A stretch of DNA of 26,965 nt, taken from the NCBI GenBank assembly GCA_017450425.1, contig JAFSUV010000069.1, forward strand, positions 1 through 26,965, written 5' to 3'. A program made the position numbers and the translations under genes. Below the pieces are notes generated by a model, which saw only the letters and a program-made list of their open reading frames with translations, made no database searches and was not told the origin of the DNA. The stretch's first letter is position 1, and each line of letters starts with the position of its first letter. This stretch comes from Kiritimatiellia bacterium (GTDB lineage Bacteria; Verrucomicrobiota; Kiritimatiellia; RFP12; UBA3636). Of this stretch, positions 1 through 9,130 are shown in pieces.

Positions 1-1
1 C

Positions 2-385
2 GTGCTCGTCGAAGGCGACGACATGACCGAGCCGATCGCCGACGAGACGCGCTCGATCCTCGACGGGCACATCATCCTCTCGCGCAAGCTCGCGCAGCAG
101 AACCACTATCCGGCGATCGACATCCTCGCGTCCGTCTCGCGCTGCCAGTCGGCCATCATTCCGAAGGACCACAAGGCTGCGGCCGCGAAGCTGCGCGCGC
201 TCCTGGCCAAGTACGCGGAAGTGGAGCTCCTCTTGAAGATCGGCGAATACAAGAAGGGGACAGACCCCGAGACGGACGAGGCGGTCGCGAAGAACGCCGC
301 CGTCAACAACTACCTGAAGCAGGGGCTCGACGAAAAGCCCGTCTACGCCGACTCCATCCAGAAGCTCAAGGAGGCCGTCGCGTAA
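2..385 (+). CDS. sctN: Type III secretion ATPase SctN (YscN/FliI family), C-terminal part; 5' end lies outside the window
   Basis: [47 protein letters not shown] is the conserved C-terminal region of T3SS ATPases. Its stop TAA (383-385) overlaps the next ATG. Confidence 0.95.
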
Positions 386-858
386 TGGCGTACCTCCTCC
401 AGCCGCTTTTGAGAATCCGCACGATGCGCGAGGACCGCGCGTCGGGCGAGCTCGTCGCGGCCAAGCGCGATCTGGCGCTCGCGGAGGAGGCGCTGGCGGC
501 ACGGCAGAAGGATCTGGCGGACTGGGAGGCGACGAAGGAGGCGCGGCGCGACAGGATCTACGATGCGATCATCGGGCGCGAAGTGAGCCGCGACCAGATT
601 GACCTGGCGAACGAAGGGGTGGCGCGGATCGACGAAGAGGGCGTCCTGAAGGCGGACAACGTCAAGCGCGCCGAACAGGAGCGCAAGAAGCGCGAAGAGG
701 CGGCGGACGTCGCCCGCCAGAACTTGAATCTTGCTACGAAAAACCGCATGAAGATCGATGAACACAAGGCAGTGTGGATGAAGGAGGACGCCCTGGCGCA
801 GGAAGCGCGCGCCGAGGGCGAACTCGAGGACTTCACGGTGAGGAAGGAAGAAATCTGA
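385..858 (+). CDS. sctO: T3SS stalk protein SctO (YscO-like coiled coil), 157 aa
   Basis: Directly follows sctN (TAATG overlap). Highly charged, predicted all-helical. N-terminal LLRIRTMREDRA and acidic C-terminal EGELEDF resemble YscO-family termini. Confidence 0.8.
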   Translation: MAYLLQPLLRIRTMREDRASGELVAAKRDLALAEEALAARQKDLADWEATKEARRDRIYDAIIGREVSRDQIDLANEGVARIDEEGVLKADNVKRAEQERKKREEAADVARQNLNLATKNRMKIDEHKAVWMKEDALAQEARAEGELEDFTVRKEEI

Positions 859-3200
859 TGTTTGCAGTAGAAGGTCTGAATGTCGAAGGTCTGAAGGTCG
901 ATGGTTCAAGGTCGTCGGCGCTTTCCTCCTTTAGCGCGTTGCTCCCCGACGCCTCCGGGCTCTCCCCGCTTCCATTGCCGAGTGACGACGCCGTACGCCG
1001 CTTCCAGAGCGCAATGGATGTGGAAGAGCCGTCCAATGGCGCTGGCCAGAAGGACGAAGGGCGGAAAGTCGAATGTCCTCTTAGCCGCAAAGAACGCATG
1101 GATCGCAAAGAGGAGCCCGCTGTTCTACAAGAGCCGGTCTTTCCGCTCGTCCAGAAAATCGTTTCGGATGCACCGGCTGCGCCAACCGTGAGGATTGCCC
1201 CTGTTTCTCCGGAGCAGGTGGACGCCCTTGCCCCGGTTGACTATTTCACCGCCTCCGACGGCACGGCGCTCCCTTATCGCCTGCATGTCCCGGCGCTGCC
1301 GGAATCGCTGCAGGTTGAAGGTTCCAAGCTTGAAGGTTCTACGTCATCCTCGCCTCAGCGTGAAAAAACGGCCGACCTTCGACTTTCCGACCTTCGACCT
1401 TCTACGCCCTCCCCGGTGTTCCCGCTGGTCCTTTTCATGCACGGCGCCGGAACGCGCGGCGACGACGGCAAGGCGTTCGCCGGCAACATTTCCTTCCAGT
1501 GCCTTCTCTCCCAGGTCACGGAAAACACCCCGGCGATTGTCCTCGCCCCGCAGTGCCCCGACGGGGAGAAGTGGGTCAACACCCCGTGGGGGGAGAAAGT
1601 CCACGACTTCGAGCCGGCACCCTCGCGCTACATGGGCGCGGCGCTCGAGCTTCTCGACCGGACCCTTGCGACGCAGCCCATCGACCGCTCGCGCATCCTG
1701 GTCTGCGGCAACTCGATGGGCGGCTACGCCACGTGGGACGTCGTTTCGCGCCGGCCCGGACTCTTCGCGGCGGCCCTGCCGGTCTGCGGCGGCGGCGACG
1801 CGGCGAAGATGCCGGAATTCGACGACATCCCCGTATGGGCCGTCCACGGCGGCGCGGACGGTACCGTGCCGGTGGAGAACTCCCGCGCGCTCGTTTCCGG
1901 CCTTCGCGCCAATCCGGCGCGCTCGGCCGAAACACGCTACACGGAAATTCCCGACGCCGGGCACGATGTCTGGACATACGCCTTCTCGGATCCGCAAATC
2001 CTCTCCTGGTTCTTTTCGAAGACCCGCGCCGCGACGGCGCCGTCGAAGGCGATCGAGCCGATATCCGTCGAGGCGGCGGCCGCGCTCTGTCCGTCCCGCC
2101 TCTACACCGCACCAGACGGCTCCACGATTCCGTACCGCGTCCACATTCCGGAAAACGCGGCTGACGCCGCCGCTCGAGCGGGGGCGCCCGGTCTGCCGCT
2201 CATCCTGTTTCTGCATGGCGCCGGCGAGCGCGGCGCGGACACCGAGCCGCTTGTGCGCTTCCCCACGATCCGCCACCTGCTCGCGCGCAACGCGATGGTG
2301 GAGGACGCGGAACGGGCAATCGTCATCGCCCCCCAATGCCCGGCGGAAGAACGGTGGGTCGATACGTCATGGGGCGAAACGGCACATGTTTTCAACGAAA
2401 ACCCCGCAAAGCCGCTTTCGCTGGCGCTCTCGCTGCTTGACCACGCCGTCGAAACCCTTCCGGTTGACCGTTCGCGCGTTTACGTCTGCGGCGTATCCAT
2501 GGGCGGCTACGGCACGTGGGACGCCCTGGCGCGCCGGCCGGAAACATTCGCGGCCGCGCTGCCCGTCTGCGGCGGGGGCTCAACCGAGGCCGTGGCCCGC
2601 GCAGGGCAAGTGCCCGTCTGGGTCTTCCATGGCGCGGAGGACACTGTCGTCCCCCCCGACAATTCGCGCAACCTTGTGGCCGCAATGCGCGACGACCCCG
2701 CGCGCACGGCTGAAACGCGCTATCGCGAATTTCCGGACGTCGGCCACGACAGCTGGCTGAACGCCTTTTCCTCGCCCGAAGTCCTCGGCTGGCTCTTCGC
2801 CCAGCGCCGGGAAGGGCAGGGGGATCAGTTGGCAGCCGACCTCCGGCCTTCCGACCTGCGACCTTCCGACCTGCGACCTTCCGACCTTCAGTCTTCGGTG
2901 TCCTCTCTCGCCGATGCGATTGCCGCCGAAATCGCGGCGACGCCGGCGCTTGCAAGCGGGGACGGGGAAATCCGAATCGTCCTCAAGCCGACTATGCTGG
3001 ACGGTTCCGAAATCCACCTTTCGGCCAGGACAGGCGAACTGACAGTCGCCATTACGCCGGCGACGCCGGAGGCCGCCGCGCTGGTCGCCGCCGCGCTGCC
3101 GCACCTTGAAACCGCGCTTGCGGCGCACTCGAGGGCTTTCCACCATGTCGCGATCTCAATCGCGCCAGCCAAGAAAGGAAGAAATGATGAAACCGCTTGA
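858..3200 (+). CDS. sctP: T3SS needle-length ruler / substrate-switch protein SctP (YscP/FliK-like) containing two internal alpha/beta-hydrolase domains, 780 aa
   Basis: Lies between sctO and sctQ. Start ATG 858 overlaps the sctO stop (TGATG) and is preferred over the track's 774. C-terminal GEIRIVLKPTMLDGSEIHLSARTGELTVAI...LPHLETAL resembles the T3S4 domain. One uninterrupted frame. Confidence 0.8.
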   Translation: MFAVEGLNVEGLKVDGSRSSALSSFSALLPDASGLSPLPLPSDDAVRRFQSAMDVEEPSNGAGQKDEGRKVECPLSRKERMDRKEEPAVLQEPVFPLVQKIVSDAPAAPTVRIAPVSPEQVDALAPVDYFTASDGTALPYRLHVPALPESLQVEGSKLEGSTSSSPQREKTADLRLSDLRPSTPSPVFPLVLFMHGAGTRGDDGKAFAGNISFQCLLSQVTENTPAIVLAPQCPDGEKWVNTPWGEKVHDFEPAPSRYMGAALELLDRTLATQPIDRSRILVCGNSMGGYATWDVVSRRPGLFAAALPVCGGGDAAKMPEFDDIPVWAVHGGADGTVPVENSRALVSGLRANPARSAETRYTEIPDAGHDVWTYAFSDPQILSWFFSKTRAATAPSKAIEPISVEAAAALCPSRLYTAPDGSTIPYRVHIPENAADAAARAGAPGLPLILFLHGAGERGADTEPLVRFPTIRHLLARNAMVEDAERAIVIAPQCPAEERWVDTSWGETAHVFNENPAKPLSLALSLLDHAVETLPVDRSRVYVCGVSMGGYGTWDALARRPETFAAALPVCGGGSTEAVARAGQVPVWVFHGAEDTVVPPDNSRNLVAAMRDDPARTAETRYREFPDVGHDSWLNAFSSPEVLGWLFAQRREGQGDQLAADLRPSDLRPSDLRPSDLQSSVSSLADAIAAEIAATPALASGDGEIRIVLKPTMLDGSEIHLSARTGELTVAITPATPEAAALVAAALPHLETALAAHSRAFHHVAISIAPAKKGRNDETA
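867..917 (+). repeat. In-frame 7/8-nt tandem repeat (T)GAAGGTC at the sctP 5' end, encoding VEGLN-VEGLK-VDGSR
   Basis: Units GAAGGTC, TGAATGTC, GAAGGTC, TGAAGGTC, GATGGTTC, AAGGTCG read directly from the sequence. Confidence 0.7.
1239..2027 (+). other. Alpha/beta-hydrolase domain 1 within SctP (COG4099 predicted peptidase/esterase type)
   Basis: Motifs LPYRL, PLVLFMHGAG, VLAPQCP, IDRSRI, nucleophile elbow GNSMGG (Ser codon 1713-1715), HGGADGTV (Asp) and GHDVW (His). Boundaries are approximate. Confidence 0.9.
1314..1401. repeat. Imperfect inverted pair of heptamer tracts within hydrolase domain 1
   Basis: GTTGAAGGTTCCAAGCTTGAAGGTTC (from 1314) followed by CCGACCTT-CGACTTT-CCGACCTT-CGACCTT (1372-1401). 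Confidence 0.7.
2097..2810 (+). other. Alpha/beta-hydrolase domain 2 within SctP (paralogous to domain 1)
   Basis: Motifs IPYRV, PLILFLHGAGERG, VIAPQCP, VDRSRV, GVSMGG (Ser codon 2496-2498), HGAEDTVV and GHDSW. Boundaries are approximate. Confidence 0.9.
2836..2895 (-). repeat. In-frame 15-nt-period (8+7) repeat CCGACCTG-CGACCTT, encoding ADLRP-SDLRP-SDLRP-SDLQS
   Basis: Four consecutive 15-nt periods. The CGACCTT core is the reverse complement of the AAGGTCG core at 867-917. Confidence 0.85.
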
Positions 3201-4161
3201 AATCCTCTCCACGCTCCCAAAGTGGGCGAATGCCACGCCGGACGCGATCATCGACTCGCCGGCGTTCGCAATGCCGTGCCGCCTTGGCGAGGAACCGGCC
3301 GTCATCCGCCCCGCGTCCGTGGCACCGGCGGCGGCGGAAACGCTGGCTCTTTCCGTGGCATTCGGCGACGAGCCTCACACGCTCGGCATTGCCCGTTCCC
3401 CGCGCTTTCCCGACCTCGACAAGCTCTGGGACGGCCGCGCCGACGTGCCTGAACCGATCCTGCTTGCCCTCGTCGAACGCGAGTGCGGGCCGCTTCTGCA
3501 ACTGCTCGAAAACGCCGTCAGGAAGCAGCTGCGGCTCGTGGGCATTTCACGCAGAGGCGCAGAGGAGGAGGAGGCGCGGAGCGATGGCACGGAGGACCCT
3601 TCCGGCATCGCTCTCTGTGTCGCCGCTCCTCGGCGCGAGGAAAACGACGCGCAGCCCATCTGTTTTTCGCTTACGCGAAGCGCCACCGTTGTCTCCGCGT
3701 TTGGCGCGCTCCGCAACCTCGACCTGGCGCACGAGTCGATCCGCTCGCAGACGCTTCAGTCCGAGGTTGAATACGCCGCCTTTGCGATGCCGGAAGCCGA
3801 CATCGCCGCCATCTCGCCCGGCGACGCGGTGATGCTCCCGGAAATCGGCTCGATCCAGCCGCGTCTCATAATCGACGGGCGGTTCGTCTGGGATGAGGGC
3901 GGCGTCGCGCCATACGGAGACGACGGAATGTGCCGCGTGCGCGGTGTCGAAGCAAAGGTGGTTTCGCTGGGCGAACTGTTCGATGCGGCAGGAGAGTTGA
4001 AAGTTGAAAAGTTGAAAGTTGAAAGTTATAAGGGTGAAGATTGCCGCGACGGACTTCAACTGCGGCTTCTTCGCAACGGCAAAGCCGTCGCCTCCGGCCG
4101 CTTCGGCCGCCTCGGCGACCATCCCGCACTCCTCGTTGAAAGTGAATTTGGCGGCCGATAG
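3187..4161 (+). CDS. sctQ: Divergent T3SS sorting-platform protein SctQ (YscQ/FliN SPOA family), 324 aa
   Basis: Lies between sctP and sctR. SPOA-like segments IAAISPGDAVML and LRLLRNGKAVASGRFGRLGDHPALLV. Purine-rich RBS AAAGGAAG precedes ATG 3184/3187. Similarity is weak, so the call rests partly on synteny. Confidence 0.65.
   Translation: MKPLEILSTLPKWANATPDAIIDSPAFAMPCRLGEEPAVIRPASVAPAAAETLALSVAFGDEPHTLGIARSPRFPDLDKLWDGRADVPEPILLALVERECGPLLQLLENAVRKQLRLVGISRRGAEEEEARSDGTEDPSGIALCVAAPRREENDAQPICFSLTRSATVVSAFGALRNLDLAHESIRSQTLQSEVEYAAFAMPEADIAAISPGDAVMLPEIGSIQPRLIIDGRFVWDEGGVAPYGDDGMCRVRGVEAKVVSLGELFDAAGELKVEKLKVESYKGEDCRDGLQLRLLRNGKAVASGRFGRLGDHPALLVESEFGGR
3549..3636. repeat. Degenerate octamer (RCGCAGAG) tract plus inverted copies inside sctQ
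   Basis: ACGCAGAG 3549, GCGCAGAG 3557, GCGCGGAG 3574, GCACGGAG 3587; reverse-type CTCTGTGT 3613 and CTCGGCGC 3629. Confidence 0.4.
3993..4028 (+). repeat. 36-nt in-frame AAAGTTG tandem repeat in sctQ (ELKVEKLKVESY)
   Basis: AGAGTTG-AAAGTTG-AAAAGTTG-AAAGTTG-AAAGTTA (7+7+8+7+7). AT-rich within a GC-rich gene. Confidence 0.85.
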
Positions 4162-4205
4162 CAGACGATGGCTGTCGATCGCAGTCGAAAAGGAAAATTC
4201 CCCCC

Positions 4206-4916
4206 ATGTTCCAGACAAACCCTTTCACTCTGATAGTCCTCTTCGTGGGACTGTCCCTGCTGCCGTTCGTGGCGATGATCGCGACGAGCTACCTCAAGAT
4301 CGTGGTCGTGATGTCGCTCATCCGCAATGCGCTCGGCATCCAGTCGATCCCGCCGAACATGGTGATCAACGCGCTCGCGATGATTCTCACGTTCTACATC
4401 ATGGCTCCGATGGCGAGCGAATCGTGGCAGATAATCGCCGAACGTCAAACGTCGAAAGTCGAAAGCCGGCAGGCCGCGAGCGGACAGGCGGAAGGCGCGG
4501 CAGGATCTGCGACCCTGGACCTTGGACTTTCGACCTCTGAATTCGCGGAAGCGGCCGAGCCGTTTCGCAGGTTTCTTTCGGAGCATACGTCCGTGCGCGA
4601 ACGGGCGTTCTTCGTCAACACGGCGGAAACGCTGTGGGGCAAAGACGGGGAACCGGCCGAGGTCGATCCGGAGAGCTTCTACATCCTTCTTCCGTCGTTC
4701 TGCGTGTCTGAGCTTACGAAAGCGTTTCAGATAGGCTTCCTCGTATATTTGCCGTTCATCGCGATCGACATCATCGTGTCGAACATCCTGCTCGCAATGG
4801 GCATGATGATGGTGTCGCCCGTCACGATATCGCTGCCGTTCAAGTTGCTCCTCTTCGTGATGGTGAACGGCTGGACGCTCCTTATCCAGGGTCTCGTGAG
4901 GGGGTACGCGATATGA
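4206..4916 (+). CDS. sctR: T3SS export apparatus subunit SctR (YscR/FliP family)
   Basis: LSLLPFVAMIATSYLKIVVVMSLIRNALGIQSIPPNMVINALA and YLPFIAIDIIVSNILLAMGMMMVSPVTISLPFKLLLFV are family hallmarks. There is no FliP-type N-terminal signal peptide. Confidence 0.97.
   Translation: MFQTNPFTLIVLFVGLSLLPFVAMIATSYLKIVVVMSLIRNALGIQSIPPNMVINALAMILTFYIMAPMASESWQIIAERQTSKVESRQAASGQAEGAAGSATLDLGLSTSEFAEAAEPFRRFLSEHTSVRERAFFVNTAETLWGKDGEPAEVDPESFYILLPSFCVSELTKAFQIGFLVYLPFIAIDIIVSNILLAMGMMMVSPVTISLPFKLLLFVMVNGWTLLIQGLVRGYAI
4440..4538. repeat. Inverted pair of heptamer tracts inside sctR (GAAAGTC-type / GACTTTC-type)
   Basis: GAACGTC-AAACGTC-GAAAGTC-GAAAGCC (4440-4467), a 43-nt spacer, then GACCCTG-GACCTTG-GACTTTC-GACCTCT (4511-4538). 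Total 99 nt. Confidence 0.7.
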
Positions 4917-5179
4917 GTCAGGCGCAGATACTCGACTATGCGAGGATGTGCCTCGTCATCGTGCTTCGGCTGTCGCTCATCCCGATAGTGGTGGCGACGG
5001 TCATCGGCATCCTTGTCTCGCTGCTGCAGGCGCTCACGCAAATTCAGGAGCAGACGCTTGGCTTTGCAGTGAAGCTCATCGCCATTTCGCTGACGCTTCT
5101 CGCCTGCGCCTCGTGGATGGGTTCGTCGCTCATGCTCTACACGCAGGACATCTTCAACAGCTTTGCGCTTCTGAGATAG
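4913..5179 (+). CDS. sctS: T3SS export apparatus subunit SctS (YscS/FliQ family)
   Basis: 88 aa, two hydrophobic helices, VATVIGILVSLLQALTQIQEQTLGFAVKL motif. ATGA overlap with sctR. Confidence 0.97.
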   Translation: MSQAQILDYARMCLVIVLRLSLIPIVVATVIGILVSLLQALTQIQEQTLGFAVKLIAISLTLLACASWMGSSLMLYTQDIFNSFALLR

Positions 5180-5182
5180 CGG

Positions 5183-6004
5183 ATGCCCTACGTTGAATTC
5201 CATCGATGGATCTTGGCGGCGGTCCTTGCCATGGCGAGGATCGGCGGGGCGTTCGCCATCTGCCCGGCGCTTGCGGATTCGATGATACCGGGCGTGGCGC
5301 GTCGGGCGGCGACGTTCGCCTTCGCGGTCATAGCGATCCCGTTCATCCACGCCGGGATGCCGCCCGGCGAACCGGTCGTGTGGGGCTTCGCCCTTCTCGC
5401 CCTCAAGGAGGCGCTGATCGGCTTCATGCTCGGCTTCTTCAGCGCAGTCCCGTTTTGGGTCGCGGAGAACGTGGGCAACTTCATCGACAACCAGCGCGGC
5501 GCGACGATGGGCGAAGTCTATTCGCCGCTTTCCGGCGCGCAGGTTTCGACGACGGGCATTTTCTTCACGCAGATCGTTTCGACGATCTTCTTCACTTCTG
5601 GCGCGGTGTTCCTGCTTCTCGCCGCGCTCTACAAGAGCTATGCCGTCTGGCCGGTCTTCCCCGCCCCCTCTGTTTCTCAGCTTTCAACTTTCAACTTTCC
5701 AACTTTCAACGTATCTTTCTCCCCCGACGCGCCGGTGCAGATTCTCGGAACGCTCGACGGAATGCTGAAGACGACGGTCGTCATCTCGGCGCCCGTCATC
5801 ATCGTGATGTTCCTTGCGACGATCGGCCTCGGGCTCGTCAACCGCACCGCGCCGCAGCTCAACGTCTTCTTCCTCTCGATGCCGGTCAAATCCGCCCTCG
5901 GCGTCGCCATGCTGATCCTCTACCTGCCCTTCATCATGGACATGCTCATGTACACCAGGGACGCCGCCATCCTCGACCCGGTGAGGAAGCTGCTGGGCGG
6001 GTAA
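5183..6004 (+). CDS. sctT: T3SS export apparatus subunit SctT (YscT/FliR family)
   Basis: KEALIGFMLG, GNFIDNQRGATM and GLVNRTAPQLNVFFLSMPVKS motifs; polytopic hydrophobic profile. Confidence 0.97.
   Translation: MPYVEFHRWILAAVLAMARIGGAFAICPALADSMIPGVARRAATFAFAVIAIPFIHAGMPPGEPVVWGFALLALKEALIGFMLGFFSAVPFWVAENVGNFIDNQRGATMGEVYSPLSGAQVSTTGIFFTQIVSTIFFTSGAVFLLLAALYKSYAVWPVFPAPSVSQLSTFNFPTFNVSFSPDAPVQILGTLDGMLKTTVVISAPVIIVMFLATIGLGLVNRTAPQLNVFFLSMPVKSALGVAMLILYLPFIMDMLMYTRDAAILDPVRKLLGG
5678..5713 (-). repeat. 36-nt in-frame CAACTTT tandem repeat in sctT (QLSTFNFPTFNV)
   Basis: CAGCTTT-CAACTTT-CAACTTT-CCAACTTT-CAACGTA (7+7+7+8+7). The core is the reverse complement of the sctQ AAAGTTG tract. Confidence 0.85.
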
Positions 6005-6152
6005 ACGAACCGAAGCGGATTCGATGGGAAAAATGGACAATCAAGATCAGGTCCGGGGCAGGGTTCGCCGCCAGAAGGAGCAGGATTTTCGCGCGGATCG
6101 GGTGCCGTGCGGGAAAAGCCAGGATTCCGGGCCGGCGCGATTTGAGCCGGAG

Positions 6153-6224
6153 GGTAGGACGAGCAGGACGGGTAGGACCAGCAGGACCAGCAGGACTGGT
6201 AGGACGAGCAGGACTGGTAGGACG
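6153..6224 (+). repeat. 9-nt tandem array 1: 8 units of RGYAGGACN
   Basis: ggtaggacg, agcaggacg, ggtaggacc, agcaggacc, agcaggact, ggtaggacg, agcaggact, ggtaggacg. Confidence 0.95.
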
Positions 6225-6245
6225 TTGCGCCGGCTTTTACCAGCC

Positions 6246-6407
6246 AGTCCTGCTTGTCCTACTCGTCTTACCAGTCCTGCTCGGCCTACCGGTCCTGCTT
6301 GTCCTACCGGTCCTGCTAGTCCTACCCGTCCTGCCGGTCCTACCCTTCCTGCTAGTCCTACCCGTCCTGCCGGTCCTACCGGTCCTGCTCGTCCTACCCT
6401 TCCTACC
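6246..6407 (-). repeat. 9-nt tandem array 2: 18 units of NGTCCTRCY, inverted relative to array 1
   Basis: Runs from agtcctgct (6246) to cttcctacc (6399-6407) in exact 9-nt register. Separated from array 1 by 21 nt. Confidence 0.95.
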
Positions 6408-6436
6408 CCTATCCCAAGCTGCGGAGGTGTTTGACG

Positions 6437-7129
6437 ATGGCCGAGATTCCCAAGATTGTCCTGCCGCATGGTGGCTACAAGAACCTCATCGTCTATCGCA
6501 AGAGCGATGTCGTCTATGAGGGGACTGTCGTGTTCTGCCGCCGGTTTCTTCCCGCCCATGGCGACCGCACGGTTGATCAGATGGTCCAGGCCGCGCGCTC
6601 GTGCAAGCAGAACATCGCGGAGGGCAGTTCGGCGTCAGGGGCGAGCAAGGAGACCGAGATCAAGCTCACCAACGTCGCGCGGGCGACGCTGGACGAGCTG
6701 ATGGAGGACTACCTCGACTACCTTAAGCGGAACGGACTCGCTGAATGGGAGGCCACCGACGAGCGTTCGCGCTATGCGCGCGCCTTCGCCAAAGGGCACA
6801 ACGACTGGAGCGGCTGGAAGGAGCTGTTCGAGACACGCCCTGCCGAGACTCTGGCCAATCTCATGCTGACGATATGCAACCAGACGAGTTACATGCTGGG
6901 GCGCATGATCGAGCGGCAGGAAGCGGACTTCAAGAAGTTCGGCGGCGTCCGCGAGCGCATGCACGCAGCCAGAACAGCCGCCAGGGCCGACGAATTCAAC
7001 AGAGGGCTTTACAGCCATCTTGCCGAGGCGAAGACGCCCGATGAATTGAACACCCGGGCCGAAAACCTGCGCCGCGAAATCAGCCGCATAGTCTGGGGCA
7101 TCGAGAGAAAGCGGGGTTGGCGGCAATGA
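6437..7129 (+). CDS. Four-helix-bundle protein with suffix domain (TIGR02436/TIGR04258 type; 23S-IVS-protein/Avd-like fold), 230 aa
   Basis: GGYKNLIVYRKS, FCRRFL, DRTVDQMVQAARSCKQNIAEGS, SKETEIKLTNVARATLDEL and suffix ANLMLTICNQTSYMLGRMIERQEADFKKFGGVRERM match the family pattern as recalled. GGAGG RBS at 6423-6427. Confidence 0.9.
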   Translation: MAEIPKIVLPHGGYKNLIVYRKSDVVYEGTVVFCRRFLPAHGDRTVDQMVQAARSCKQNIAEGSSASGASKETEIKLTNVARATLDELMEDYLDYLKRNGLAEWEATDERSRYARAFAKGHNDWSGWKELFETRPAETLANLMLTICNQTSYMLGRMIERQEADFKKFGGVRERMHAARTAARADEFNRGLYSHLAEAKTPDELNTRAENLRREISRIVWGIERKRGWRQ

Positions 7130-7142
7130 AGGGCGAAAAGAG

Positions 7143-7385
7143 AGCAGGCCTGGCAGGACGAGCGGGACCGGCAGGACCGGCAGGACTGGCAGGACCGGCA
7201 GGACTGGCAGGACTAGCAGGACGAGCAGGACTAGCAGGACGAGCAGGACGAGCGGGCCTGGCAGGACTGGCAGGACCGGCAGGACGAGCAGGACGAGCGG
7301 GACCGGCAGGACCGGCAGGACTAGCAGGACCGGCAGGACTAGCAGGACGAGCGGGCCTGGCAGGACTAGCAGGACGAGCAGGACC
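7143..7385 (+). repeat. 9-nt tandem array 3: 27 units of RGCRGGMCN
   Basis: 243 nt in exact 9-nt register, from agcaggcct (7143) to agcaggacc (7377-7385). Confidence 0.97.
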
Positions 7386-7393
7386 AACAGGGC

Positions 7394-7429
7394 TGTCCTA
7401 CACGTCCTACGCGTCCTACACGTCCTGCA
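7394..7429 (-). repeat. 9-nt tandem array 4: 4 units of YGTCCTRCR, inverted relative to array 3
   Basis: tgtcctaca, cgtcctacg, cgtcctaca, cgtcctgca. Ends 12 nt before the sctU RBS. Confidence 0.9.
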
Positions 7430-7453
7430 TTGCCCCCCCTCAGGAGGCTGCCC

Positions 7454-8545
7454 ATGGCTGAGTCTTCCGGCGAAAAGACCGAGATGCCGACCCCGAAGAA
7501 GCTGCGCGACGCGCGGCAGAAGGGGCAGGTGTGCACCAGCAAGGACATAGTCTCGACAGCAATCCTGATCGTCCTCTTCGCGCTTCTTGGCTGGATGGGC
7601 GTCGCGCTTGTCGATGACGGGGCCATGCTCCTCGACTACATCGGGGACAGGATGCGCGGCGATCCGTTCGACGCGACGCGTCCCGCCGCCGGCCTGACCG
7701 TCATGATCGTCTGCAAGTACTCGTTCATTTTCGTGCTGATTGCCGCCGTCATCGGGATCGCCGCCAATGTGGCGCAGATCGGGTTCCTCTTCACTTTCGA
7801 TCCGATCATCCCGAAGCTGGAGAAGCTCAATCCGGTGGAGGGTGCGAAAAAGATATTTTGCATGAAGAACCTCTTCGAGTTCTTCAAAAACGTCGTCAAG
7901 GTTTCGTTCCTCGGCTATCTAATCTACAAAATCATCTGGGCGAGCGTGCCGGAACTTCTCACGATGTGCTACGGCACGATCGACGACGTGTTCCCGAGTC
8001 TCAAGCTCATGCTGAAACGACTGGCGGTTTACACCGCCTTCGGCTACATCGTCATCGCCATCGTCGATCGCCTCTTCCAGGGGCGGAACTTCACCAAGCA
8101 GATGATGATGACGAAGGACGAGGTGAAGCGCGAATACAAGGAGATGGAAGGTTCGGGCGAGGTCAAACAGGCACAGCGCCAGTTCCGCGACGAAATCCTC
8201 AACGGCCCGGATCCGGCGAAGGCGGCGAAAAAGGCCAGCGTGGTCGTGACGAATCCGACGCGCCTTGCGGTCGGCATCCGCTACGACGCGGAGGAGGCGC
8301 CGCTGCCGCGCATTTGCGCCATGGGCGCGGGCAAGGTCGCCAAAATCATCCGCGAGACCGCGCTCGCCGAAGGCATCCCCGTCATGGAAGACCGCCCGCT
8401 CGCCCGCGCCCTCTACGCCAACGGGCGGCTCGAAGACTTCGTGCCGGAAGATTTTCTCGAACCCGTTTCCGAAGTTTTGAAATGGGCCAAGCGGCTCGAA
8501 GACGCCAGAAGGGAAGAGGAGGAACTCGACAATGTGCAGCTGTAG
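7454..8545 (+). CDS. sctU: T3SS export switch protein SctU (YscU/FlhB family), 363 aa
   Basis: SGEKTEMPTPKKLRDARQKGQV, MMMTKDEVKREYKEMEG and VVVTNPTRLAVGIRY motifs. AGGAGG RBS at 7442-7447 precedes ATG 7454. Confidence 0.97.
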   Translation: MAESSGEKTEMPTPKKLRDARQKGQVCTSKDIVSTAILIVLFALLGWMGVALVDDGAMLLDYIGDRMRGDPFDATRPAAGLTVMIVCKYSFIFVLIAAVIGIAANVAQIGFLFTFDPIIPKLEKLNPVEGAKKIFCMKNLFEFFKNVVKVSFLGYLIYKIIWASVPELLTMCYGTIDDVFPSLKLMLKRLAVYTAFGYIVIAIVDRLFQGRNFTKQMMMTKDEVKREYKEMEGSGEVKQAQRQFRDEILNGPDPAKAAKKASVVVTNPTRLAVGIRYDAEEAPLPRICAMGAGKVAKIIRETALAEGIPVMEDRPLARALYANGRLEDFVPEDFLEPVSEVLKWAKRLEDARREEEELDNVQL

Positions 8546-8584
8546 TCGCAAACGCCGAAACGCAGCGGCAAAAGGGAATCGAAA

Positions 8585-9097
8585 ATGACAGTGGAAGACC
8601 ATTACACGGCCATTGCGCCGAAACTCACGAACTGGCTCGTCGCCACCGGCTCTTCGTACGCCGAGGCCTGCGACTTCGTGCAGGAGGCGTTCGTCCGCAT
8701 CTGGAAGATGCGCGACGACTTGCGCGACAGCGATGCCGCCGTGCGCGGGCTGGCCTACACCATCGCGCGCAACCTGCGCAAAAATTCCTGGCGGGACAAC
8801 AGCCGGTTCGTCCCGGTTGACGAACTTCCGGAATCCGCCGTCACGGTCGAAGCGCCGGAAACCCTTCCATCCGAGGAAGCGGAAGAGAGCGCCCGGCTGC
8901 GGGGCATCCTCGCAAACGCCTTTGCGAAACTACCGCCCGCGCTGCGCGAAGCGTACACCCTCTTCCAGATCGGCGAGCGTTCGATTCGCGAAATCGCGGC
9001 CGAAACCGGGGTGAGCGAAAACCTCGTGAAGGTCCGCATTTTCCGCGCCAAGGAGAAATTGCGCGCGATCCTGACGGACATGGGCGTAACCTTCTGA
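8585..9097 (+). CDS. ECF-type RNA polymerase sigma-70 factor, 170 aa
   Basis: Region 2 (ACDFVQEAFVRIW, TIARN) and region 4 HTH (LPPALREAYTL...SIREIAAETGVSENLVKVRIFRAKEKLR). No regions 1 or 3. Confidence 0.92.
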   Translation: MTVEDHYTAIAPKLTNWLVATGSSYAEACDFVQEAFVRIWKMRDDLRDSDAAVRGLAYTIARNLRKNSWRDNSRFVPVDELPESAVTVEAPETLPSEEAEESARLRGILANAFAKLPPALREAYTLFQIGERSIREIAAETGVSENLVKVRIFRAKEKLRAILTDMGVTF

Positions 9098-9130
9098 CTC
9101 ATTGCGTGTAAACCTGACGGAGATCAAACC

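Follow-up and report, generated by a model that had tools for sequence, protein, structure and literature searches.

Heptamer arrays within sctQ and sctT of a rumen Kiritimatiellae type III secretion operon as probable in-frame copies of a dispersed 7/8-nt repeat family

Two short tandem arrays of heptamers, which match each other in inverted orientation, lie within the genes sctQ and sctT of a type III secretion operon that occupies positions 1-9100 (open reading frames (ORFs) and Pfam scan) of a 26,965-nt stretch of DNA, here called the window. The window is one contig (JAFSUV010000069.1; C264 in our numbering) of the rumen Kiritimatiellae metagenome-assembled genome G000 (1.36 Mb, 267 contigs, 56% complete, 66% GC). 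The arrays are probably local copies of a 7/8-nt repeat family dispersed throughout the lineage, read as extra loop residues, with a 15-nt structure which would have been left by the survival of the reading frame. They belong to a kind of repeat that is already described but unexplained, and that is new for the Kiritimatiellae within the literature that could be searched, where no paper on heptamer repeats of such kind in this group was found.

The array in sctQ, of the type (A)AAGTTG, is located at 3993..4028 on the plus strand and consists of the units AGAGTTG AAAGTTG AAAAGTTG AAAGTTG AAAGTTA (7+7+8+7+7 = 36 nt), which encode ELKVEKLKVES. Its counterpart in sctT, of the type CAACTTT, is located at 5678..5713, equally on the plus strand, with the units CAGCTTT CAACTTT CAACTTT CCAACTTT CAACGTA (7+7+7+8+7 = 36 nt) encoding QLSTFNFPTFN. 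Both arrays are read in frame, have degenerate end units with just 2 to 2.6 perfect units, and are called by Tandem Repeats Finder (TRF) at period 7 as well as at period 15. The tracts are AT-rich within genes of 57-70% GC, with a GC content of 0.46 at positions 3950-4049 around the sctQ tract versus 0.64-0.70 in the flanking sequence, and each is free of C on one strand and free of G on the other. The 18-mer AAAGTTGAAAGTTGAAAG is found at 4008..4025 on the plus strand in sctQ and, as an exact match, at 5681..5698 on the minus strand in sctT, an inverted match of which none is expected by chance (100 shuffles). Set in the same orientation, the two arrays are identical in register at 31 of 33 bases, with the 8-mer at the same unit. 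A preliminary description of the window, made from its letters, had reported these matching inverted 36-nt arrays, and their coordinates, unit lengths, AT-richness and orientation all proved to be as given there.

Of the two genes, sctT (5183..6004, plus strand) is readily recognized as the export apparatus subunit by its Bac_export_1 domain (Pfam, 1.7e-55), by structure matches to SpaR/FliR and by its place after sctS and before sctU, which in relatives directly follows. The sctQ-like gene (3187..4161, plus strand) is located between sctP and sctR and has a product of 324 aa when counted from the ATG at 3187; the ORF as called mechanically begins at 3106, and the start at 3187 is matched by close homologues, which begin with MKPLEIL. 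No Pfam match and no PDB sequence match was found for the protein, and its AlphaFold model has a mean predicted local distance difference test score (pLDDT) of 51.8, with 65-84 in the C-terminal half, for which the top fold match is the FliM(SPOA)::FliN fusion 4yxb/4yxc (Foldseek probability 1.00, E 9e-4). The provisional name sctQ is taken from synteny and this model fold match alone.

Both arrays sit in loops prone to insertion and deletion, where they would be read as extra loop residues. SctT is 14 residues longer, exactly at the array, than eight SctT proteins of the same genus or order (71-87% identical), and the gene measures 819 nt here versus 777 nt in most relatives. Nucleotide alignment with G004, G007, G011 and G001 places the 42-nt insertion approximately at 5661..5702 (plus strand), a placement that is ambiguous by a few bases, and the solved chains of SpaR, when aligned, have a gap where the tract lies. 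The array was absent from all 160 further sctT loci of the genome and metagenome collections, none of which comes from the clade that bears it; the same loop has, in many lineages, unrelated GC-rich insertions of 3-10 residues. In SctQ, the loop with the array comprises residues 296-314 of the model, has a pLDDT below 50, follows a helix and precedes the last beta strands, and relatives differ here by up to 14 residues or hold other repeats. An internal start for a short SctQ-C product was considered and rejected, as the array is within the last SPOA-like domain and not ahead of it. Separately, in the SctQ homologues P0126 and P0130 other repeat-encoded insertions of up to ~40 residues (NVANVE..., PAQSSPSPQ... 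repeats) are present in the array loop and in a second loop near residue 150.

The combination of 7- and 8-nt units has its counterpart in the distribution of stop codons. Translation of idealised arrays in the AAGTTG orientation, whether of pure 7-mers or of pure 8-mers, meets TGA in all three frames, and exactly one frame is open when 7- and 8-mers alternate. Of the three frames of the real sctQ array, the one in use is the only one open. The 8-mer, present once, averts a TGA that would otherwise fall at the third unit, and its presence is explained by the stop-codon constraint. The last unit has GTTAT in place of the intact GTTGA, with which a TGA would stand in frame. In the CAACTT orientation all frames are open, and all three sense frames of the sctT array are free of stops.

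Variation among strains is of the same nature. The protein collection includes the clade with an array-bearing SctT, and polymorphism was inferred from these protein sequences, which derive from consensus assemblies. SctT is of equal length in two further assemblies of the species; the SctT P0004 (88% identical) is shorter by TFNFP, and full-length proteins of the P0005 cluster (at least 90% identity among its members) count 271 residues in six cases and five more (QPSTC) in P0251. The proteins P0006 and P0007, like P0005, hold diverged arrays. Across ~15 related sequences, full-length SctT array alleles differ by multiples of 15 nt (7+8) only, and no allele among those inspected is frameshifted at the array. 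A split SctT allele (P0247 + P0248) was considered as an OFF variant and rejected, with the break near residue 62, away from the array. Between genes, by contrast, three orthologous arrays at the sctR/sctS junction have spacers of 98, 112 and 119 nt and hence differ by 7-nt steps. The preliminary description had argued for selection on frame retention and had proposed to compare strains: array lengths do vary, in frame only, by five residues (15 nt), and with the 7+8 stop avoidance in sctQ, the 15-nt strain steps in SctT and the 7-nt steps between genes its argument is supported, for sctQ more strongly than it had been put. The frame bias is judged here from orthologous comparisons, as G000 has too few clean arrays for a genome-wide count of lengths modulo 3. 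Frame retention is nevertheless a survivorship filter on a slipping repeat and not evidence of a designed switch.

The two arrays also appear to be independent of each other across strains. In many SctQ homologues LKVE is present once, and one homologue reads LKVEGLKVE. When proteins are paired by equal contig size, not by sequence, a 63216-nt contig combines the SctT array with a single LKVE in SctQ, and an 8343-nt contig combines LKVEGLKVE in SctQ with an insertion-free SctT. By this pairing each array apparently occurs without the other, and the two would not be an obligate pair.

Beyond the operon, at least 11 (A)AAGTTG/AAGGTTG arrays are distributed over 10 contigs of the 56%-complete G000, in which intergenic copies also mix 7- and 8-mers and other octamer families are found as well. 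Three GTTGA cores spaced by 7-9 nt (GTTGA-N2-4 x3) occur 311 times in G001, 211 times in G004 and 311 times in G010, all of the same genus, and a sister genus uses AGTTG[CT]G in place of GTTGAAA(R). Arrays of the GTTGAAA(R) family are mostly solo. Among the AT-rich 7/8-mer arrays of G000 away from contig edges, 29 of 33 score as not in a gene with a home-made codon-usage classifier, which was trained on 455 long ORFs and misclassified at least one array, the one in sctQ. In G001, a start codon follows within 40 nt for 16 of 33 sampled arrays when the CAAC strand is taken as sense, versus 2 in the opposite orientation, and the downstream genes are, judged from their N-terminal sequences only, ordinary ones such as Pgi-like, CysK-like and FtsA-like.

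Related type III secretion operons carry arrays inside sctQ and at other gene junctions too. The sctR/sctS junction is an ATGA overlap, which is the ancestral state, in 123 of 133 loci and is split by a heptamer or octamer array in the remaining 10. In these split loci (L023, L031, L040, L041, L101, L102, L105, L145, L154 and L173) the array is followed by a new GGAG resembling a Shine–Dalgarno sequence, and the sequence after the array resembles the 3' end of sctR, as if the target had been duplicated. A further observation concerns contig C16 of G001 (L187, L190, L191, L193), where four paralogous ORFs starting with MALDINGYN or MPLDINAF each have a GTTGAAAR array, CAAC-sense, 11-25 nt upstream of the ATG; they are at least ~490 aa long, a lower bound since each runs off the end of its locus.

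On the account preferred here, the arrays are members of a family of tandem direct repeats with the unit GTTGAAA(R), part of a superfamily T[CT]GAA[AG]G, which is dispersed through the genomes of rumen Kiritimatiellae, for the most part in intergenic DNA and above all in leaders just upstream of start codons. In the present clade, SctQ and SctT may each have gained an array, newly arisen or landed, in a variable loop, both arrays being presumably transcribed and translated as extra loop residues. Array lengths would change by slippage, and within genes survival would be limited to variants that stay in frame and are free of the TGA in GTTGA, which would leave the 7+8 = 15-nt structure. The arrays would on this account be neutral passengers, and their inverted orientation and closeness are most likely coincidental in an operon holding many arrays.

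Several findings sit uneasily with this account. The peptide ELKVEKLKVES(YKGE) is identical in SctQ proteins which are just 65-67% identical overall, a conservation that exceeds the expectation for a neutral loop. None of the eight species-representative SctT loci of the genus has the array, including the nearest, G004 (87%), yet other strains at 82-89% have it, a patchy distribution that would imply gain and loss or recombination. Finally, the in-register identity of the two arrays at 31 of 33 bases could stem from a common origin.

Most weight among the alternatives, if still little, goes to the reading that the arrays within genes are kept for an action in cis like that of the leader arrays, or because the encoded peptide matters, which we regard as improbable. 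Possibly, an unstructured stretch free of G or C could bind a post-transcriptional factor or ribosomes and tune downstream genes; the strong polarity and start-codon bias of the family (16 versus 2) would fit, as would the persistence of AT-rich tracts in genes of 57-70% GC and a genome of 66% GC, the better conservation of the SctQ array peptide compared with its surroundings, and the parallel to the TAACTGA repeats, for which binding of S1, Csp or CsrA has been proposed (PMC4679880). The arrays are, however, not adjacent to the next start, being ~180 nt (sctQ) and ~290 nt (sctT) upstream of it, a consensus scan found no promoter-like site, and SctT arrays diverge freely among strains. An internal sigma-70 promoter TTGAAA-N17-TATAAG at the sctQ array, in particular, was not found by the scan, the second hexamer being without the required final T. 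For a possible resemblance of CAACTTT arrays to the epsilon enhancer of T7 or to -35/-10 boxes of the ECF type, a literature search brought nothing usable. The preliminary description had instead suggested a possible phase-variable ON/OFF switch; as a contingency locus, slippage by one unit (7 or 8 nt) would frameshift sctQ or sctT and toggle secretion off and on in a subpopulation. As in simple sequence repeat (SSR) contingency loci, the coding sequence has a tandem unit whose length is no multiple of 3; the arrays do differ in length between strains, intergenic arrays of the family shift by single 7-nt units, and a one-unit change in sctQ would give an in-frame TGA. Tract length and position are unlike those of such loci, and so, as far as consensus assemblies can tell, are the alleles: known phase-variable switching tracts are much longer than 2 to 2.6 perfect units, the arrays are two thirds or more into their genes rather than near the 5' ends, full-length alleles in the assemblies, where minority OFF alleles would not show, vary by multiples of 15 nt with the sole split allele broken elsewhere, and like arrays occupy more than 100 mostly intergenic sites, where the frame is irrelevant. 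We consider this ON/OFF switch very unlikely.

The other proposal of that description, pairing of the two arrays, is to be divided. Their complementarity stands: the predicted RNA duplex between the arrays reaches -46.6 kcal/mol, by far the best in the operon, compared with -26 for the runner-up outside the sctT array, and each array folds weakly alone. A functional pair would be formed either by this long-range mRNA duplex, perhaps an RNase III target, or by recombination that inverts the segment sctQ'-sctR-sctS-sctT' as a reversible OFF switch, and the 18-nt exact and 33-nt near-exact inverted match as well as the cognate inverted partners of other arrays in the operon (the sctP tracts, the sctR pair and the 9-mer arms) would be in line with it. 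Each array is apparently present without the other in related strains, however, and the stretch that separates them is native operon sequence, collinear with G004 at 79-83% identity and unbroken; for the same reason the idea that the arrays are terminal inverted repeats of a mobile cassette was rejected. Invertible switches share the inverted repeats that flank a segment, but a Pfam scan of 20 window ORFs gave no recombinase domain. Both arms are moreover translated, so ribosomes would unwind a duplex that spans 1.65 kb, and with 11 arrays in 1.36 Mb we estimate a ~15% chance that some pair falls within 2 kb, more in an array-rich operon. Members of the family are, besides, mostly solo. A functional role of the pair has as small a probability as the frameshift switch. 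Slightly less probable still is the bolder version in which cognate inverted arrays are made in pairs and the sctQ/sctT pair is an RNA clamp or recombination substrate that reversibly silences sctR-sctS-sctT; if true, paired arrays would bracket operon segments and silence the export gate of a gut commensal's injection system.

For copies of a dispersed repeat family read in frame, the closest published analogue, by comparison of their features, would be the TAACTGA heptamer direct repeats of the Beggiatoaceae. Found in marine Beggiatoaceae, some Cyanobacteria and Bacteroidetes, these are mostly located a few nt upstream of start codons, with few inside ORFs at protein ends, and their forward orientation has stops in all frames whereas the reverse is translatable; the proposed binding of S1, Csp or CsrA is unproven (MacGregor 2015, PMC4679880). 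Shared with them are few-copy tandem heptamers dispersed over many loci, mostly intergenic near starts and in a preferred orientation, one stop-bearing and one translatable orientation, and a minority of copies within ORFs. Distinct here are the unit GTTGAAA(R), the phylum and the mixture of 7- and 8-mers. The Beggiatoaceae forward repeats only end ORFs, whereas sctQ reads through the stop-bearing orientation by 7+8 alternation, and the copies within ORFs are located in internal loops of conserved secretion-machine proteins and not at protein ends.

The cyanobacterial short tandemly repeated repetitive (STRR) sequences, reportedly going back to Mazel et al. in 1990, are equally lineage-specific, scattered over the genome and often near promoters or starts, with a function that is unresolved, as are the heptamers of Nostoc, and the arrays described here are of this TAACTGA/STRR kind in having few tandem 7/8-nt units at many unlinked loci with an intergenic, near-start polarity. 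Published STRR units have other sequences, and we know of no description of STRR translation inside essential genes. Heptamer repeats near start codons are reported for Nostoc (bioRxiv 10.1101/2022.06.06.494920), and STRR have been used for fingerprinting (PMC5088731). The G-rich heptameric SSRs that Rehm et al. describe from Xanthomonas and Nostoc (2015, PMC4692102) are likewise heptamers over-represented in particular lineages; they form quadruplexes and differ from the present arrays, which are AT-rich with one strand free of C and the other free of G. A different parallel is offered by the Rickettsia palindromic elements, which are found in frame inside unrelated protein genes (review PMC10969869). 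As with these, members of a dispersed, translated repeat family are found in frame in unrelated and conserved genes, at structurally permissive sites and in a seemingly fold-compatible manner, but the elements are palindromic, MITE-like, ~100-150 bp long and encode a conserved peptide, whereas the tracts here are plain tandem repeats of 36-42 nt with no palindrome of their own.

The unexplained class of bacterial heptamer direct repeats would with these arrays be extended to rumen Kiritimatiellae and to the inside of core type III secretion genes. What the analysis adds is the 7+8 stop-avoidance rule and a natural contrast, in that the family changes by 7-nt steps between genes and by 15-nt (7+8) steps only inside them. 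For annotation, AT-rich islands in conserved genes of this lineage are best read as repeat insertions rather than as switches, frameshifts or assembly errors, and the start-codon polarity makes the family a candidate post-transcriptional signal.

The operon runs from a YscO-like gene through sctP (with an HpaP-type C-terminus), the sctQ-like gene, sctR, sctS, sctT, an inserted block and sctU to an ECF sigma factor. The ORF at the sctP position (window 774-3200) has two alpha/beta-hydrolase (Peptidase_S9/DLH-type) domains before its HpaP/T3S4-type C-terminus, which is unusual for a needle-length or substrate-switch protein; it has matching hits in G007 and G001, and the regions of G007 matched by its two halves overlap, suggestive of a duplication within the ORF. 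The inserted block (6004-7430) adds 1.4 kb between sctT and sctU, where in most relatives sctU follows directly, and comprises a small ORF and a gene for a 23S_rRNA_IVP-like four-helix bundle with inverted 9-mer arrays on either side. The sctT/sctU junction of G008 contains 2.4 kb, and in G004 sctS is separated from sctT by 1.27 kb.

Further arrays on the plus strand of the operon are a GAAGGTC(T) array at the sctO/sctP boundary (870..914), which belongs to the superfamily T[CT]GAA[AG]G, and, within sctP, a CGACCTT(C) array (1372..1402) and a CCGACCTT/CGACCTG array (2836..2889; 94% matches); TRF gives period 15 for all three, the period that had been noted for the sctP tracts in the preliminary description. 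In sctR (4439..4536, plus strand), TRF detects a CGAAAGT array followed by a spacer and an inverted GACTTTC-type array, and the encoded peptide (SKVES ... LDLGLSTS) is common to G004. At the same place in sctR of G004 (L012 3379-3466) the heptamer array differs in unit number and arrangement, and this shows in-place turnover. Within sctQ itself, an octamer array of the type CGCAGAGG is located at window 3550-3581 and is one of a family that numbers 30 or more arrays in G000 (C57, C143, C161, C171, C230 and others). Many intergenic arrays of this CGCAGAGG family have a flank close to TTTTCAATTTTGTCA and are found ~50-245 nt from CGGGATRTCG arrays with conserved flanks of their own, so that both together look like a composite dispersed element.

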